Origin: Promethearchaeota archaeon
GTDB taxonomy: Archaea; Asgardarchaeota; Lokiarchaeia; Sigyniarchaeales; SOKP01
Direction of reading: 5' to 3'
DNA: 64,000 nt
Assembly: GCA_048940445.1 (NCBI GenBank)
Contig: JBHLON010000006.1
Location: forward strand, 31,634 to 95,633
Positions 21,453 to 42,703 of the stretch are shown one piece after another. How positions within the stretch are numbered: position 1 is the stretch's first letter; each line of letters opens with the position of its first letter. Made by a program: the position numbers and the translations under genes. Under the pieces are notes generated by a model. That model ran no database searches. It was not told the origin of the DNA and saw only the letters and a program-made list of their open reading frames with translations.

Positions 21453-21537
21453 AAGTTGTTTCTATATTTATGTTGCTACACATAAATGCAAAGAAAAAGT
21501 ATAATAATGTATAAGAAAATGATATCTACTCTTTTTA

Positions 21538-21622
21538 TGCGGGAAGGGAGATTCGAACTCCCGAACCCCTACGGGACTGGATTCTGAGTCCAGCGCCTTT
21601 GACCAAGCTTGGCAATTCCCGC
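21538..21622 (-). tRNA. tRNA-Leu (CAG), intronless, CCA not encoded
   Basis: GCGGGAA/TTCCCGC acceptor stem, CTGGA-CT-CAG-AA-TCCAG anticodon arm, long variable arm, GTTCGAATC. Confidence 0.97.
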
Positions 21623-21814
21623 AATCTTTTAATTACTAAAATTATAGACGTTCCTATAATTAATTCATTATAACATAAGCTATAAAATTGATTAGAAACT
21701 TCAGTAATCATTTTTAAGATTTTAAACAAATCAACAAATCTATTTTAATACAGAAAATAATAATATATTATTAGAATTTATAAGTATTATATTCAAACAC
21801 TTTCTTAGTTTAAC

Positions 21815-32937: not shown

Positions 32938-34446
32938 ATGGTTCATAATAGTAAAGTGAATCAAGTTATATTAATAATATTCGATGACATTCGGGCATCT
33001 CACCTTTTTAATTTAATGAATGAAGGAAAATTACCCAATATCGATGAAATTGCAAATAATGGTATTAAATGTTCTAATTGCATCACTTCTTATCCTTCTA
33101 TAACTTTTCCTTGTTATAGTAATATAATTACTGGCGCATATTCAGACTATTTTCCCAAAGAAGGTAGTGCTGTTCCACTTTATCATTGGTTAAATAGAAC
33201 TGATCCTCCCTCTAAAGATAAAAAATGGCCTTTTTTTCGCAATTATGGAAATGGAAGTGATTTATTAAGAATAAATAAAGACATTGGAAGGAATGTTAAA
33301 ACAATTTTTGAACAAGCTGGGGAAAGTAATTTTCTCAGTGCAACAAGTTATCTATACAGAGGATCTTATTTTGCTGTTTCCAAAGATTACCATAACGTGA
33401 AAGATATACTTCAAAATATAGAATTAGCATATAGAAATCCAACTTACTTTTTTCAAGAAAAAGAGGTGCCATTGATAAGCGTAGGATATATTCCTCACAC
33501 TGATACTCTTATGCATGAAAAGGGATTTAACCATCCAGACTATATCAAATTGATAATTGAATGTGATAAATGTATTGGTTCTCTAATCAAGACACTAAAA
33601 GAAATGGGTTACTATTATAGTACTGCAATTGGGATAATAACAGATCATGGTAATTTTAAAGCTGAAAAAGTTATAGATATTGAACCTTTTTTTAATCATA
33701 ATGGGCTAATCCCATATAACCCTCAAAAAGGTATAGGAGATTTTGATCTAAATTTTGGATCTATGGGTTTTTTCAATTTTCGAGGTGAAGATTGGTATCA
33801 TCATCCCAATACTAAACTGCTTGAAAACTATAAAATAAGTGGAAAAGGGAATAGGAATATAAATTTGTTTGAGACACTCTGGAAGATACCAGGAGTTAAG
33901 ATGATGTATTATAAAGACGATGATACTAAGCCAGATAAAGGAACAATTCATATACTCAAAAAGAATGAAAAAAGTAAGGTTATTTCTAGAGCAACCATAA
34001 AATATCAAGGTTTTGGAAAAAATCAAAAAACTATGTATAGTTATAACCGGGATGATATATTCAATTACGGAAATAAAGTAGATCAAAACAAATATTATGC
34101 AATTGATGAGTGGTTACTATTTACTAATCAGATAGATTTTCCACTAGTGGTTGATCAAATTCCTCGCTATTTTAAAAATCCAAGATCTTGTGATATAATT
34201 GTTTCTACCCTTGGTACTCATGGATTTAATTACGAACATGGTAAGACTAGAAGTAATTCTCCATTCTCACATGATATTGGGCTAAAAAGCTCTATGGTTG
34301 TGCCTTTTATAATAGGAGGAGCAGAGGATATACCTTCAATTAATTTACCGTATTGTAAAACAACAGATATGGTTCCCACATTGTTAGAATTATTGGGTTT
34401 AAATCCAGATAAATCTGTAATTGGAAAATCTGTATTAAAATACTAA
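32938..34446 (+). CDS. Alkaline phosphatase superfamily / nucleotide pyrophosphatase-phosphodiesterase
   Basis: IIFDD, PSITFPC...IITG, D.LMH..G, ITDHG, D.VPTLLELLG. Confidence 0.85.
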   Translation: MVHNSKVNQVILIIFDDIRASHLFNLMNEGKLPNIDEIANNGIKCSNCITSYPSITFPCYSNIITGAYSDYFPKEGSAVPLYHWLNRTDPPSKDKKWPFFRNYGNGSDLLRINKDIGRNVKTIFEQAGESNFLSATSYLYRGSYFAVSKDYHNVKDILQNIELAYRNPTYFFQEKEVPLISVGYIPHTDTLMHEKGFNHPDYIKLIIECDKCIGSLIKTLKEMGYYYSTAIGIITDHGNFKAEKVIDIEPFFNHNGLIPYNPQKGIGDFDLNFGSMGFFNFRGEDWYHHPNTKLLENYKISGKGNRNINLFETLWKIPGVKMMYYKDDDTKPDKGTIHILKKNEKSKVISRATIKYQGFGKNQKTMYSYNRDDIFNYGNKVDQNKYYAIDEWLLFTNQIDFPLVVDQIPRYFKNPRSCDIIVSTLGTHGFNYEHGKTRSNSPFSHDIGLKSSMVVPFIIGGAEDIPSINLPYCKTTDMVPTLLELLGLNPDKSVIGKSVLKY

Positions 34447-34464
34447 TATGATTTATTTATATTC

Positions 34465-35472
34465 TCAATTTCTTTCTTTAAAGAATTTCCGTTTTCTTGA
34501 TAAACTTTGCTTATAATTCTCCATCATTTGATTAAATAGTTTAGCTCCCAGAGTTAATCTCCAATGTGGTTTAGTAGCAATAATATCCCCAAATTTTGAT
34601 TTCTTTCCTTTTTCATATTGTTTTTTTATTTGAAACTTTATTTGAAAAATGTTCTTAAGTTCTTCTAAAAATCTTTTACTAGATGAGGTGATTCTTGTGC
34701 TCTTCGCATTACCATCACCATCATAATATCCTAATAAAAATGCAAGTAATAATTCTTTTTTTTTTTCAAGATTATTTGGAAGGGTTTTTCTTTCAGACTT
34801 TGAGCTTGAAAATCCAATAGACATTAAATCTTCTACCATAGGTTTACACCTAAATCTAACATAGACCATCTTATAATATTTTAATTGGTATCCATACTTT
34901 CTTATTCTAAAACGAGACTTAATCATATCTATGTGATTTAATCCTATTATATCACAAAACTTGACAAGTTGATTTTTATCTTTACTAGACAGTTCTAATG
35001 AAATTAAATACCAAGGTTTACCCTTATAACGGTATGTTACTGATCCATCAGCATAGAGAAACCCCAACCAATAAGCTTTATCAAGAGAATTTATCTTATT
35101 AAAAAAATTATATTTTAATCCAACTTCATACTGCTGATTTGGATATAATTTCATGTTAGTATTAAAGGATATATATTTTAAAATGAACCCTATACATATC
35201 AATGATTTATCAGGAACATTTTTAATGATATTTCTTGAAAAATTAAATAGATTTCTTTCAGAAAAAAGATAATTAGGATTATAACCTCTAATATTTGGAT
35301 TTCTTATCCGCACTTTTAAATCAGAGAAATAGGTTTTACCATATCCTAAAGAGCTACTAGCATTAGACAAAGAACCTAGTACTTTAGAAAGATCTCTTAT
35401 TAAATCTAGAGTTGAATATCCCTTTTTTTTATAGTAGAACCCATTTTCTGTTAAATTTTCTTTCGGTTCCAT
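34465..35472 (-). CDS. Free-standing double-motif LAGLIDADG endonuclease-like protein
   Basis: AYWLGFLYADGS and AFLLGYYDGDGN helices. Confidence 0.85.
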   Translation of the reverse strand: MEPKENLTENGFYYKKKGYSTLDLIRDLSKVLGSLSNASSSLGYGKTYFSDLKVRIRNPNIRGYNPNYLFSERNLFNFSRNIIKNVPDKSLICIGFILKYISFNTNMKLYPNQQYEVGLKYNFFNKINSLDKAYWLGFLYADGSVTYRYKGKPWYLISLELSSKDKNQLVKFCDIIGLNHIDMIKSRFRIRKYGYQLKYYKMVYVRFRCKPMVEDLMSIGFSSSKSERKTLPNNLEKKKELLLAFLLGYYDGDGNAKSTRITSSSKRFLEELKNIFQIKFQIKKQYEKGKKSKFGDIIATKPHWRLTLGAKLFNQMMENYKQSLSRKRKFFKERN

Positions 35473-35701
35473 TTCATATCTAAAATTAATTCAGGATTTA
35501 TAAATTCCATTCTTAATCTTTCTTAAAAAGTAAATCTTTTAGAAATTGAAGTGTAATTTCTAGTACTTAGTAAGAGGAATAATATTTATTTTTAATCTCT
35601 ACGAAGATTTTCTGAATTTAAATGATTTATTTTGTTAAGCGATTAAAATAAGAATTTTATATAATGATTCTTTTAAGTATTTCATATAGAATTTTTAATA
35701 T

Positions 35702-38533
35702 ATGGTGATTGAAATAGTTAAGGCAAATCATATCGTAATAGTACCGGAAACTCATTGGGACCGTGAAACCTTATGAAATTTATACATTAGGCACGATTGG
35801 TATCTCCCATTCCAAGAATATAGAGCTCGGTTAGTTCTTATGATGGATAAGCTCTTAGAAATTTTGAAACAAGATCCAAAATATACTAATTTTACTCTTG
35901 ACGGACAAGTCATTCCCATTGAAGATTATCTTGAGGTATCCCCAGAAAAAAAAGAAGAAATAATGAAATTTGTGAAAGAAAAGAGACTTTCAATTGGCCC
36001 CAGTTATGTTTTACCAGATGAATTTTTAATCAGCGGAGAATCTTTGATAAGAAATTTGATGATAGGCCATCAAATCTCAAGAAACTATGGGAGAGTTATG
36101 AAAGCAGGTTATATTCCTGATCCTTTTGGTCACATTGCTCAATTACCCCAAATTTTGAAAGGATTTGAACTTCCTTCAGTTTTTTTCTACCGTGGTTTTG
36201 GTGATGAATTTGAAACTCAAGAACTAAATATGGAATTTATTTGGAAATCGCCAGGGAATGCTGCTTCTATCTTAGCCATTCACTTAATTTTAGGTTATTT
36301 TTCAGTAGCAGATTTAAATTATTCAGATAAAGGTGGAGATTATACGAGGGTATTAGACAAACTAAAAGAAGTAGTCTTTAAATTAGAAGAATATACTGCT
36401 ACTCCCATAATTCTATTAAACAGTGGTTCGGACCATCATGAAGCACATCCAGAACTTCCAGAAATTATAAAGCAATGGAATAAAAGTTACCCAGATAAAA
36501 AAATGGAACAAAATGACTTTGAATATTATATCAGCAAAGTTTTGGAATGTCGACCTCAATTAAAGTCATATCAAGGAGAATTAAGAGGAAGTAAATATGC
36601 AAACATTATTGCTAGCGTTCTGTCCACAAGGATGTGGATTAAACAGAGAAATACAAAAATAGAATACTTATTCGAGAAGTACACGGAACCATTTTCAACA
36701 CTTATATGGGTTCTTGATAAATATCATGAGTTCCTTTATCCTGCATCTTATATTCAAGTTGGTTTAAAATGGTTAATTAAAAATCATCCTCATGATAGTA
36801 TCTGTGGTTGTTCTATTGATCAAGTTCACAATGAGATGAGAACTCGTTTTGATTGGGCAGAACAAATAGGAAATGAAATCATTAAAAATTCTTTTCTATA
36901 CTTAATAAGATTGATAGGATATGAGAAAAGCTGGACAAAAATACCTCTTTTTGTCTTTAATCCTTTACCTTGGGAAAGAAAAGATGTAATTGAATTCAAC
37001 TTTATAACTGAATTTTTTGGGTATAAAACCTCCACAAATTTTAAAATAGTTGATATTAATGGAAATGAAATAGAATATCAATATATTAGAGTAGAAGAGG
37101 AACCAAGATTTAAGAGTGTGTTAAGTAATAGCTATTTATGTAGTTTTTTAGCTGAGACACCAGCATTAGGATATAAAATTTATTATTTAATTCCCAGAAA
37201 GAAAGCTAAAACCTATCTAAAAGAAGAGAAAGAATTTAGAATAACACAAAACACCTTAGAGAATCAATTTTTCCTTGTGAAAGTAAGCTTAAATGGAATG
37301 ATAGATGTTTATGATAAGAAAGCTAATAAATGGTACGAAAAACTGTGCTTTATTGAGGATGTTGGTGATTGGGGTGATGAATATGACTTTTCAGGTCCAA
37401 ATGAAAATCAAACTGATTTCTTATACACATCTGAGGATTTGAACTTTTTGGGAATTAAACCATATGTTGATGGACCTACCCAAAAAACCATAAAACTGGA
37501 TCTCAATTTAAACTTACCAGAGGCCCTCTCTGAAGATAGATTTAATAGAGAGCCTAATTTGGTTTTAAATCTAATAACTATTTATATTACATTATATAAA
37601 GATATTAAACGTATTGACTTTAAACTAGATTTGGAAAATAATAGCAAAGATCATAGAATTAGAGTCTTATTTCCTACAGGAATCGAATCTGAGAAAGTAG
37701 ACTGTGATGGACATTTCTATGTTATACCAAGAGCCGTGGACTTACCGAAAGTTGACAATTGGTATCAAAATCCTCGCCCTACAAATCATCAAAAAGATTT
37801 TGTGTCAATAAGTAATAAATCACGAACTTTCGCTATATTGAATAAAGGATTACCTGAATATGAAGCAATTAGAAATCAGGATGGGACTATAACGTTAGCG
37901 ATAACTCTATTGCGTTGTATTGAGTGGCTTTCTAGAGATGATTTCATTACTCGAAAGGATATGGCTGGTCCTGCTTTCAATACTCCTGAAGCGCAATGTC
38001 TTGGAAAACATTCATTTGATTTTTCATTAATTATCGAAGAGAATAAGAGTGGTTGGCTAGAATCAGAAATTCATGTTAAAGGAAAGGAGTTCAATAATCC
38101 CTTTAAAGTATTATTTCTAAATGCGCTTAAAATTCCTTTTAGAATGTCTAATAAAACTATACTATTTCCTACTCATCGAATTGTTAGTTTTGGTATGACA
38201 GAAGATGAGCCTTTAGAACCAGTTTTACCTCTTGAACTAAGTTTTTTAGAAATTGATAATAAGAACATATTACTAAGTGCTTTAAAAAAGTCTGAAGAAG
38301 ATGACAATCTAATAGTTAGAATTTATAATGTTTCTCCAATCCCACAGAAAAGTACTTTAAAATTTTGTAACCAAGTGAAAATTGAAAAAGCTGCAATAGT
38401 GAACTTATTAGAGGAAGCTCCTATTAATGATATAAAAGCCACTGTTAAAGTTCTAGATAGAAACACTCTATTAGCAGAATTGCAAGCTCATGTTATTGCG
38501 ACAATTAGAATATTGAACTCAAAAAGTGAATAA
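35702..38533 (+). CDS. GH38 alpha-mannosidase, split: exon 1 35702-35767, exon 2 35798-38533
   Basis: Joined exons give HIVIVPETHWDREWYLPFQEYR; LDGQ, PDPFGH, HPHDSICGCS downstream. Confidence 0.92.
35768..35797 (+). other. Candidate 30-nt BHB-type mRNA intron in the GH38 gene
   Basis: CGTG-AA^A-CCT.ATG...CAT.AGG-CACG-AT^T; contains in-frame TGA; removal restores DRE|WY. Confidence 0.85.
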
Positions 38534-38655: not shown

Positions 38656-39726
38656 TTGATGAAATTCCCAGAATACCTAAAAAGTTATAAACAAAATATC
38701 AATGAAGCAATAAAGCAAATCTTTAAGAAAAAAATTAAGCAATTAAATAATTCATTTCTGAAGGATTATTATACTGAATTAAAGGATTATTTTTTAGTTG
38801 GGGGCAAAAGGATTCGTCCATTACTATGTATCGCATCATATAATGCCTTTAGGAAACAACACGATGATAAAGTAATACCGATAAGTGTTGGTATTGAATT
38901 TCTTCACAATGCATCTTTAATACATGATGACATTATTGATAAGGACGATTATCGGAGAGGAAATCCCTCCTTTCATTTTCGATTTAAAAATTATCATAAA
39001 AGCTATAATTTTAAAAAAACAAATGATGTAGATTTTGGTAATTCTATTGGAATTATTGGTGGAGATACAGCATTCTTTTTAGGATTAGAAGCTTATCTAT
39101 TCAATGATTTCGAAAAAGAGATTAACAACAAAGCTATTAGCCTTTATGAACAAGCGTTTATTGATATAGCTAATGGAGTCTTAATCGAGATGGATATGGT
39201 AAATAAAGAAAAAATTGAAATGGCGGAGTACATAGAAATGATTTCTTTAAAAACCAGTGCCTTAATTGAAAAGTCATTATTAATTGGAGCAAATTATTCC
39301 CAGATGGATAAAGCTCTTGAAAAAAGTTTATCAACTTATGGAATTAACCTGGGTATAGTATTTCAAATAATTGATGATATTTTAGGGACTTTTGGAGATG
39401 AAAAAGTTACCGGAAAACCTACTGATGGAGATATAAGAGAAGGGAAAAAAACGTGTCTATTGATTGAAGCCTTAAATAAATTAGACTCAAATAAAAAGAG
39501 TCAGCTTGAGAACATTGTAAATAAAAGCGATATCAGTAATGAGGATGTAGAAATTGTAAAAAATTTATTCATTGATGCTGATGTAATTAACTCTAGCAAA
39601 AAATTAGCTGAAACATATTATCAAAAAGCTAAATTAGCCCTAGATAGTTTATCAGATTACATAAATCCTCAAGAATTCGAATTTTTTGATGATCTCCTAA
39701 ATTTTGTTATGAATAGAACGTATTAA
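38656..39726 (+). CDS. idsA: Geranylgeranyl diphosphate synthase
   Basis: GGKRIRP, HDDIID.DDYRRG, KT, FQIIDDIL, GDIREGK. Confidence 0.93.
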   Translation: MMKFPEYLKSYKQNINEAIKQIFKKKIKQLNNSFLKDYYTELKDYFLVGGKRIRPLLCIASYNAFRKQHDDKVIPISVGIEFLHNASLIHDDIIDKDDYRRGNPSFHFRFKNYHKSYNFKKTNDVDFGNSIGIIGGDTAFFLGLEAYLFNDFEKEINNKAISLYEQAFIDIANGVLIEMDMVNKEKIEMAEYIEMISLKTSALIEKSLLIGANYSQMDKALEKSLSTYGINLGIVFQIIDDILGTFGDEKVTGKPTDGDIREGKKTCLLIEALNKLDSNKKSQLENIVNKSDISNEDVEIVKNLFIDADVINSSKKLAETYYQKAKLALDSLSDYINPQEFEFFDDLLNFVMNRTY

Positions 39727-39803
39727 CCATTATAAAGATCTATATTCAAGCTTCAATTAGTAAATATATATTAGTAACATAAAAAGGAAAATTGAATGTT
39801 AAA

Positions 39804-41699
39804 TCATAACTTTTGATTAACCCATTGATATAATTCTCCCAATAGAACCATCTTATCTTTACTTTTTTTGAGATTGTCTATATTGTTCACATTTAATAGC
39901 CACATTGCAGATTTTAATTCATGTTTTAATGTTTTTATCTCTTTAATTGTATTGATTGTAGTATTGTTATTATAATCATTCCACGCGGAGACAAGGAATT
40001 TATAGGCAAAACCACCAATATCAGCTCCTAATATGATACTTTTTGCGATATCCAAACCTGTTTTTAAGCCCCCTGTAGCAATCAATAACTTATTTGAAGC
40101 TTCTCTGACTTTTAAAATACTTATTGGTGTGGGAATTCCCCATTCCCTAAAAGTATCCGCTATTTTTCGAGAAAATACTTCATAATCTGAGTTATCACGA
40201 AAAGCCTCAATCGCTGCAAAACTGGTACCTCCTGTTCCTCCTACATCAAATCCATTAAATCCCAAAAGATCAAGTTTTATGGCTAAATCCTTATTAAAAC
40301 CAGTTCCAACCTCCTTTGCTATCAAAGGAATTTTTGCAGCTTTTTTTACTTTTACAAAATTCTCTTGAAAATTACGATATGAGAGATCTCCATTACGCTG
40401 CACTAATTCATGTAAAGCATTAAAATGAATAGCCATCGCATCAGCGTTTACTATTTTGACGCATTCCTCAAACTGATTTTGTCCAAAATCAGGATGACTT
40501 ATTTGCCCTATACCAATATTCCCTATTATTGGTATATTAGGAGCAACTTCACGAACAACTTTAAATGAATCTATAGTAGATAGATCTTCTACAGCTATTC
40601 TTTGACTTCCCACACTCATTATAATATTTTCCGATTCAGCAGCTAAGGCTAGAATTTTATTAATTGCCTTGGAAATGGGATGTCCTCCTGTTATTGCTGC
40701 TATACAAATAGGAGCAGATATATATTTGCTAAAGAATCGAGTAGAAAGATCTACATCATTAAAATCTATTTCAGGAAGAGCATGATGTATAAGTTTTATA
40801 TCTTCAAAATAATTTTTTGAATGTTGGACATTAAATTTTAAAGGTATTTCTAAATGATCTAATTTTCTAGAATATATTTCATTTTTGAGTGGAATCTTTG
40901 ATTCTGGTTTAATATATGTACATGTTAATTTCTGATCCCGTAATGCCTTAAAAACATAATTTTCCTTCAATCCATTAATAACTTGAATGGGGATATCTAA
41001 TTCACTAATCTTTTTCATCATTGCTAGTTTTCCTTTAATTCCTCCGGTAACATCTATTTTTTCATCAAGTTTAGCTAATTGGATTTCATCTATTTCGCTT
41101 GAAGCTATTTCTAAGGCTAGTTTTGAATGATCTTTATCTTGAATATATAAGCCATCTTTTTCTATTGCAAAAATAACTTTAATAATTCTTTTTCGGTATT
41201 TTTTACATAATTCAAAAATAATTCGATCGCCTGAAAGTATTGAAAAAGATCCTCCCTTAGTGAATAGAATGTCACCATATAGTATAGGAAGAATGCCAAG
41301 ATTTAATATAGCGTCAATAGAATCCATTGATTCAAATGAGACTGTATTTGCATCTTGAATAAATATAGTCGACGGTTGAACTGAAATTGCTGGAGAATTT
41401 TTTTCAATAAACTGACGAACAATAAGAGAATTGAGTTCATTCATGGCTTTATGAGTTTTAGAAAGTCCTACTAATTGATCCTTAACTAAAGGGTTTAAAC
41501 CTTTAGAGATTTGATATTCTTTTGCTAACGGATGCCCAAATGATCCTCCTCCGTGAACGAGAATTAATTTTTGATTACTTTTAATGATTTGTTCGATTGT
41601 ATCATTAATTATATCTTTTCTTAGAGAAAAAGGATCATTTTTCTCTGTTAACAGACTACCTCCCAATTTTAATAGATAAATTCTATTAGATTCCATCAA
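39804..41699 (-). CDS. fni: Fusion of isopentenyl phosphate kinase and type 2 IPP isomerase
   Basis: N-half KLGGS, HGGGSFGH, SGD, DVTGG; C-half RKLDH, AITGG, VGSQR, KEVGTG, GGTSF, WGIPT. Confidence 0.9.
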   Translation of the reverse strand: MMESNRIYLLKLGGSLLTEKNDPFSLRKDIINDTIEQIIKSNQKLILVHGGGSFGHPLAKEYQISKGLNPLVKDQLVGLSKTHKAMNELNSLIVRQFIEKNSPAISVQPSTIFIQDANTVSFESMDSIDAILNLGILPILYGDILFTKGGSFSILSGDRIIFELCKKYRKRIIKVIFAIEKDGLYIQDKDHSKLALEIASSEIDEIQLAKLDEKIDVTGGIKGKLAMMKKISELDIPIQVINGLKENYVFKALRDQKLTCTYIKPESKIPLKNEIYSRKLDHLEIPLKFNVQHSKNYFEDIKLIHHALPEIDFNDVDLSTRFFSKYISAPICIAAITGGHPISKAINKILALAAESENIIMSVGSQRIAVEDLSTIDSFKVVREVAPNIPIIGNIGIGQISHPDFGQNQFEECVKIVNADAMAIHFNALHELVQRNGDLSYRNFQENFVKVKKAAKIPLIAKEVGTGFNKDLAIKLDLLGFNGFDVGGTGGTSFAAIEAFRDNSDYEVFSRKIADTFREWGIPTPISILKVREASNKLLIATGGLKTGLDIAKSIILGADIGGFAYKFLVSAWNDYNNNTTINTIKEIKTLKHELKSAMWLLNVNNIDNLKKSKDKMVLLGELYQWVNQKL

Positions 41700-41736
41700 A
41701 CTTAATTACCATTTAAATTTTCTTTCTAAATTGGTT

Positions 41737-42703
41737 TTAACCAATCATTGTTTTCCAAATTGAAAATCCTTCGTTTTTAATTGCGTTAAAGACTTGTTCT
41801 TGGGAAATTTCGTCGGAATTTAATGCTATCACCAATCCTCCTCGTCCTGTTCCAGTCATTTTCGCTCCTATGGCGCCATTGTTTAGAGCTATTTCCACAA
41901 TTTTATCATTTATTTCTCCTGAAACCGTCATCACTCGTAGTAATTTATGATTTTGATTCATTAATGCTCCAACAATGTCCTTTTTACCTTTAATTAACGC
42001 TTTTTTAGCGTGTTTAGCGATTTCCTTATATTCACTAAATATTGATTTAAATTTGTCTGAGTTTTCTTCTTTCAATTTACGAACATCCTCGACGACCTCT
42101 GCAGTAGAAGCCGTTATTCCAGTATCAGCAATCACTAAATGCATTTTACTTTTTGATTTTAAACGATCAATAGTGTTTTTCCCACCTTTTAAGTTCTTTA
42201 TAAACCAGATCAACCCTCCATAGGTAGATGCTGTATTATCAATACCAGAAGGCGTTCCATGGTATGCCATTTCCCCAGCATAAGCAGCAGCGTTAATTTT
42301 TTCATCATCTAAATTAAGTTTAAATTCTTCATTAAGTGCCCGTGCAAGAGATGTACATTGAGCGGCTGAAGCACCTACTCCACTTGTAGCAACCAAATCG
42401 CCACTAAATTTAATCTCTAGTCTATTATTAACTACATCAATCTTTAAAAATTCTAAAACATTTTTTATAGCTTCATTAGCTTCATTCTGCTTTTTTTCTT
42501 TATAACCAGATGTTGCCATTCGTTGGTCATCAACATACCATCCTTGACCATCTACAACTTTAACGGTAGTGATTGTCATTGACCCTAAAGCAGATGCAAT
42601 AGCGGGAAGACCATAAACCACGAAATGTTAGTGTTTACTCCCTAATTGGGAAATAAAACTCACCAAAAAGGATGATCTTTCCATAACCTTTTCCAGTACC
42701 CAT
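41737..42703 (-). CDS. mvk: Mevalonate kinase, split: exon 1 42703-42659, exon 2 42627-41737
   Basis: Joined exons give MGTGKGYGKIILFGEHFVVYG; GVGASAA, HGTPSGIDN, GAKMTGTGRGG; SD GAGGTGA before ATG 42703. Confidence 0.92.
42628..42658 (-). other. Candidate 31-nt BHB-type mRNA intron in mvk
   Basis: GGTG-AG^T-TTTATTTCC..GGGAGTAAA-CACT-AA^C; frameshifting, with in-frame TAA; removal restores FGE|HF. Confidence 0.88.

Follow-up and report, generated by a model that had tools for sequence, protein, structure and literature searches.

In the window (the whole stretch of 64,000 nucleotides of Promethearchaeota archaeon DNA that was analysed), a GH38 gene is interrupted by a 30-nt insert with an in-frame TGA (35768–35797, plus strand), which is very probably an intron of a protein-coding gene that is spliced by EndA and RtcB. 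A sequence-only reading had proposed the intron, and this part of it stood; the mobility of the intron and its link to a LAGLIDADG endonuclease gene about 300 nt upstream were absent from that reading. What is new here is the proposal that this endonuclease gene (34465–35472) belongs to the intron element, and from the sequence comparisons a homing cassette appears to be the best and a likely reading of the two together.

The GH38 intron and its predicted splicing

The GH38 gene consists of exon 1 (35702–35767, plus strand), whose 22 codons end in PETHWDRE and include the HxD Zn ligands, and exon 2 (35798–38533, plus strand), which is uninterrupted. The spliced frame reads PETHWDRE|WYLPFQEY, is open from ATG 35702 to 38533 (933 aa) as had been claimed for the rest of the gene, and encodes a product with four GH38 Pfam domains. 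The N, middle and C domains of GH38 were all found, the N-terminal HxD only upon joining exon 1; the downstream ORF has four GH38 domains but begins only at profile position 30. It was also correctly observed that the ORF track, which runs from ATG 35840, misses the Zn-ligand HxD; both His and Asp sit in exon 1. In SpGH38 the Zn ligands are His13 and Asp15 of the HxD (PMC2815779). An intron-less orthologue of the window gene aligns with bacterial GH38 structures from its first residues, HWDREWY included.

The insert splits H-W-D-R-E|W-Y and carries its TGA at 35774–35776, both as first described. When 30-nt deletions were slid along the gene (n = 25), DREWY, the motif of the intron-less orthologues and of a solved bacterial GH38 structure, was restored by 35768–35797 alone. 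This single motif-restoring boundary fits the BHB rule, bearing out the exact removal by canonical cuts that had been predicted. The 4-bp central helix pairs CGUG of the exon strand (35762–35765, plus strand) with CACG (35792–35795), and is flanked by bulges at 35766–35768 (AA^A) and 35796–35798 (AU^U) and by an inner stem, CCU.AUG/CAU.AGG; each of these elements had been correctly proposed. The outer exon-exon helix that a strict hBHBh' would have is weak (one invariant C-G pair, an internal loop, then GGGA/UCCC), giving a relaxed form. When the window allele is folded alone, the BHB and an alternative fold come out equal at -10.3 kcal/mol, and pair probabilities in the central helix are 0.51–0.65. 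With the boundary pair fixed by protein homology, the probability of passing the BHB filter by chance was about 8e-5. [quoted passage not shown]

The window genome is a 3.64-Mb draft in 139 contigs, which would leave room for an assembly artefact, but this explanation is refuted. Whether DNA data carry the insert had been raised together with the intron, and contigs from three DNA runs of two studies, one of which may be this assembly's own source, match the stretch without difference. The runs found to contain the stretch were all of DNA, which speaks neither for nor against splicing. Homologous inserts are moreover present in 15 other genomes and in 8 metagenome clusters.

An insert at the HWDRE|WY site was found in 16 of the 135 genomes of the family, spread over four genera, while 84 alleles were without it. 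All 16 inserts are 30 nt long, although 20–45 nt was permitted, and all contain an in-frame stop, the type and position of which vary. A looser pattern, applied to 161 genomes of the class, recovered these 16 with one chance match in addition; G048/L308 (27 nt) was rejected as such, and is not GH38. Over the 16 aligned introns 94.7% of cells were paired (central helix 100%, intron-side stem 91%), compared with 21–51% in controls with slid boundaries. Compensatory changes were seen in five stem pairs, and none of 500 shuffles reached the observed pairing, a type of count that is inflated by relatedness. L321 is the only intron with a central-helix mismatch (CUCG vs CGUG), and this allele, which has a split endonuclease, may be decaying.

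On the exon side the helix is built from the codons GAC CGT GAA, which were present in 16 of 16 intron alleles but in only 4 of the 84 intron-less ones. Comparison of GH38 with its sister alleles gave a dN/dS of about 0.1. For exon 1, where a selection test had been suggested by the sequence-only reading, pN was 0.06 against a pS of 0.56, indicating purifying selection, and the ortholog alignment suggested alongside it showed the restored motif uninterrupted in intron-less orthologues. An unspliced gene would be a pseudogene, or would start translation at ATG 35840 and lack the Zn ligands, or would depend on readthrough of the stop, and the in-frame stop followed by an in-frame ATG would suit such an arrangement. 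Purifying selection on both exons, the variation in stop type and position over 16 alleles while the pairing persists, and the damage to the active site expected from ten inserted residues or from an absent HxD (PMC2815779) make it very improbable.

The window genome encodes two EndA paralogues (catalytic and structural) as well as RtcB. The catalytic paralogue has the Tyr/His/Lys triad, and is closest to the Aeropyrum-type catalytic subunit. Splicing is thus very probable, given the conservation of the site in 16 genomes, the covariation, the constraint on the helix codons, the purifying selection and the two enzymes, EndA and RtcB, encoded in the genome, and the same evidence supports the mRNA intron first read from the letters. 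In the proposed pathway the pre-mRNA would adopt the relaxed BHB, the two-subunit EndA would cleave each bulge behind its second base, and ligation of the exons by RtcB would give a 933-aa GH38 protein with its Zn-binding HxD.

The endonuclease gene and the mobility of the intron

The free-standing LAGLIDADG endonuclease (34465–35472, minus strand, 335 aa) has two motifs, LGFLYADG and LGYYDGDG, both of them acidic and intact, and is transcribed divergently from GH38. The AT-rich spacer between the two genes (35473–35701) presumably carries both promoters. The stop codon of the endonuclease lies 18 nt from the end of a phosphodiesterase/sulfatase-like gene (32938–34446, plus strand), which is the usual upstream neighbour of GH38 and forms the left host flank of the putative cassette. 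In a predicted model (pLDDT 88.7) the top folds were I-AniI, I-SceI and I-DmoI; a sequence-level search of the PDB gave no match for the endonuclease. Its closest homologue is a Lokiarchaeota record, and identity within the subfamily is 53–58%, with the next matches at 44% or below.

Members of the subfamily were found in 6 of the 135 genomes, each adjoining an intron-bearing GH38 gene; the 84 intron-less alleles had none next to them. In all eight further protein clusters from public assemblies that had readable DNA, the endonuclease adjoins a GH38 gene with a 30-nt intron, although some of these clusters may be the same species as the listed genomes. Because the genomes are related and the clusters possibly duplicate species, the Fisher p of 7e-6 for the association of endonuclease and intron is overstated. 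Among the six genomes, endonuclease distance followed intron distance (r 0.90, 2 of 720 permutations) but not GH38 distance (r 0.06). A free-standing endonuclease next to a gene with an ORF-less intron, and inheritance of the two together but apart from the host gene, are both as collaborative homing would have it. A metagenome scan with the single protein found no match; an alignment-based scan found two close but short contigs.

On a GH38 tree made by a quick method, which has many open forks, intron-bearing alleles are dispersed: 15 changes are needed, compared with 14.5 for shuffled labels, and many sister pairs consist of one allele with and one without the intron. Identical introns occur in G005, G106 and G133, which represent two genera and have a pS of 0.61–0.73, while the introns of G005 and G016 are six bases apart at a synonymous distance of only 0.26. 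In six close sister pairs, synonymous differences were 0.37–0.67 up to about 12 codons from the site and 0.10–0.16 farther out; such raised synonymous divergence around the site is, on this comparison, the mark of an imported tract. A donor copy of the intron was searched for elsewhere in the window genome, and none was found.

Beyond the endonuclease, 11 endonuclease loci carry a dead second 5' end of GH38, here called the orphan. In 10 of 10 tested cases the nearest intron-less allele resembles the orphan more closely than it does the working exon 1; in G016, for example, the orphan matches this allele at 50 of 51 bases and the working exon 1 at 38 of 51. The orphan ends exactly at the intron site in 8 of 10 tested cases, and the inserted stretch in these relatives measures 1.4–1.6 kb. 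Compared with the exon 1 of the host, the working copy shows synonymous recoding. This evidence demonstrates the polarity of the gain, i.e. that the intron-less allele is the recipient, and that the imported unit comprises endonuclease, promoter, replacement exon 1 and intron.

The orphans also largely refute the explanation of an ancient, vertically inherited intron with many losses (e.g. by cDNA recombination) and an incidental endonuclease. In its favour, the intron-less alleles of G015 and G035, which are near intron-bearing alleles, carry GAC CGT GAA like a scar of loss, and the cbf5 intron is known to have been lost (PMC2738675). It is nevertheless contradicted by identical introns at saturated synonymous distance, by intron relationships that track the endonuclease and not GH38, and by the match of the orphans to the intron-less sister allele, i.e. 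the recipient. It is therefore regarded as having very little probability, although some losses of the intron may have occurred.

An orphan exon 1 was also looked for in the window genome and was not found, so the history of the cassette rests on the relatives. The window genome, G001, G004 and L322 share the lack of an orphan and a shorter enzyme that ends no more than 30 nt from the upstream gene; in the window genome a later deletion appears to have taken away the orphan together with about 55 residues at the C terminus of the endonuclease, a full-length relative of which has 390 aa. Exon 1 of the window (35702–35767) resembles cassette exons more than it does exon 1 of the intron-less sister G017, and is probably the replacement exon of the cassette. 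Cassette exons mostly begin ATG GTT AAG; within 35702–35716 the window has ATA in place of that ATG (35714), preceded by GGTGA, and an in-frame ATG lies 12 nt before this ATA; the true start codon of GH38 is uncertain.

Homing of the cassette, comprising cleavage of empty alleles, repair and immunity conferred by the intron jointly, is the probable route of spread as judged from these comparisons. The ends of the orphans suggest the HWDRE|WY codons, or a position close to them, as the place where the LAGLIDADG enzyme would cut alleles that lack the intron. Repair from the donor would copy in about 1.4–1.6 kb that hold the endonuclease gene, a new promoter, a replacement exon 1 and the intron, using the orphan or the upstream gene as the left arm and exon 2 as the right arm. 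The old exon 1 of the host would stay behind as the orphan that is seen in relatives, and the intron would divide the rebuilt target and so prevent re-cutting. The endonuclease would later decay or be deleted, leaving intron-only alleles. No endonuclease lies beside 10 of the 16 intron alleles, and these ten mostly have host-type 5' ends; broken endonucleases were found in G141, P0015 and P0016. Both groups fit decay and loss.

The main rival to this pathway is that the endonuclease homes alone, by intronless homing that supplies a replacement 5' end, cutting elsewhere or being kept from its own allele by the recoded codons, and that the intron is merely co-converted. The synonymously recoded working exon 1 could itself give immunity, and the ten intron alleles without endonuclease would also be expected from a passenger. 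On the other hand, no intron-free endonuclease locus was found among the 14 with readable DNA, the orphans stop at the intron site, and the recoded GAC CGT GAA is also required by the central helix and occurs in four intron-less alleles, which leaves a passenger intron unlikely. The co-occurrence of endonuclease and intron at 14 of 14 loci is consistent, indirectly, with an intron that blocks self-cleavage.

In G035 L020, G005 L040, G003 L017 and G036 L005 other insertions occupy the interval that separates the phosphodiesterase gene from GH38, and this interval may be an insertion hotspot. Two remoter genes with a GH38N domain (G000 C68:8176-9111 and C73:1335-2135) have open frames without HWDREW, and are unlikely targets.

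Comparison with known systems

In the literature searched, cbf5 was the only archaeal coding sequence found to be spliced by EndA, next to an intron in a Haloferax 5' UTR (PMC2738675, PMC7714728). The splicing of cbf5 was demonstrated by cDNA, and its intron is read as one gain followed by losses (PMC2738675; Watanabe 2002 and Yoshinari 2006 cited there). Like the cbf5 intron of Crenarchaeota, the GH38 intron is a short BHB of relaxed fold in coding sequence at a catalytic motif, is patchily present, and is accompanied by a hetero-oligomeric EndA (PMC2738675). It differs from the cDNA-proven case in lying in an Asgard metabolic gene, in its repeated lateral gain and linked endonuclease, and in that its splicing is predicted.

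Collaborative homing is known from phages. In cyanophage S-PM2 the free-standing endonuclease F-CphI likewise adjoins psbA, whose intron has no ORF and interrupts a conserved coding site; here cleavage by the enzyme was demonstrated and the intron was proposed to block self-cleavage (PMC6083498). [quoted passage not shown] The 16S pair of Pyrobaculum oguniense, Pog.S1213 and Pog.S1205, as described in PMC4496867, is similar in that an archaeal homing endonuclease spreads a neighbouring short hairpin BHB intron: Pog.S1213 cuts the empty site of Pog.S1205 and thereby co-converts it. The pair differs in residing in an rRNA gene, in having the enzyme inside another intron 8 nt away, and in replacing no gene end (PMC4496867).

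In the fungal mitochondrial insertions of Allomyces atp6, Ophiostoma rps3 and Phlebia atp6/cox2 an endonuclease likewise displaces the end of a gene and supplies a second copy; these, as described in PMC4019555, concern 3' ends in organelles, and no protective BHB mini-intron is described for them. In the GH38 case the 5' end and the promoter are replaced. The tRNA introns of Asgard archaea share with it the phylum, the BHB sites, the repeated recent gains and the two-paralogue EndA; the preprint that describes them (October 2026) treats tRNA only, without mRNA, homing or LAGLIDADG, and states that how Asgard introns arrive "remains open" (10.64898/2026.10.13.758758). A literature search that covered few subscription papers returned no report of the combination seen here or of Asgard mRNA introns.

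The cassette offers a testable route of arrival: the enzyme is named, a target (about 20 bp) and an immunity element are predicted, and among relatives each state is represented, namely the empty site, the complete cassette together with its orphan, the decayed endonuclease and the intron by itself. Such a route would explain why introns of this kind are located in conserved catalytic motifs. Gene callers shorten the affected genes: metagenome GH38 calls begin past the intron (894–899 aa) and lose the Zn ligands. The findings bear on intron gain before eukaryotes, with no link to spliceosomal introns implied.

Other inserts and endonuclease loci

The GH38 insert had been described as the second BHB intron of the window. 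This count agrees with the present data, the first being a 31-nt insert in the mevalonate kinase gene (42628–42658, minus strand), which has the helix GGUG/CACU and splits GE|HF, and after which the ORF track begins.

BHB inserts of 30–31 nt were also recognised in three further genes of the window genome (G000), those reported being the ones whose removal restores a recognised motif. These are purA (G000 C134:73775-73804, minus strand; WGDEGKGK), fwdA (G000 C47:64002-64031, plus strand; GDGPWE) and a UvrA-like gene (G000 C63:31206-31236, minus strand; FSFNEPSGMC), of which fwdA abuts another LAGLIDADG gene. A pattern scan of the genome contigs was too loose, its matches being mostly due to chance, and a de novo genome-wide BHB census with codon scoring gave 7–8 matches vs 2–7 in shifted and mirror controls, which is too weak for counting.

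Other LAGLIDADG subfamilies lie upstream of EF-1alpha (L086-L088) and eIF2gamma (L089, L090). BHB-like inserts occur in EF-1alpha at GHIDHG|KST (L086:2810-2842; L088:2865-2896) and in the same motif of eIF2gamma, i.e. in the P-loop GH(I/V)DHG|K(S/T)T. Most of the other endonuclease-group loci scanned had no such insert within 1.5 kb, and an orphan exon was found neither at the fwdA locus nor in the 1.5-kb flanks of the EF-1alpha and eIF2gamma loci. On balance these sequences tip slightly towards a general rule, in which the tRNA-type mini-introns of Asgard mRNAs would be the immunity parts of free-standing LAGLIDADG cassettes aimed at conserved catalytic codons and supplying a replacement for the displaced gene end. 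If so, this would be a general and ongoing route by which protein-spliced introns enter the coding genes of the closest archaeal relatives of eukaryotes.

The mevalonate kinase gene is part of an isoprenoid cluster adjoining GH38 (38656–42660), together with a polyprenyl synthase and a 631-aa protein that, judged from its translation, is an apparent fusion of isopentenyl-phosphate kinase and type 2 IPP isomerase. The sole tRNA that ARAGORN called in the window is tRNA-Leu(CAG) (21537–21623, minus strand); intron-split tRNAs may escape this program.
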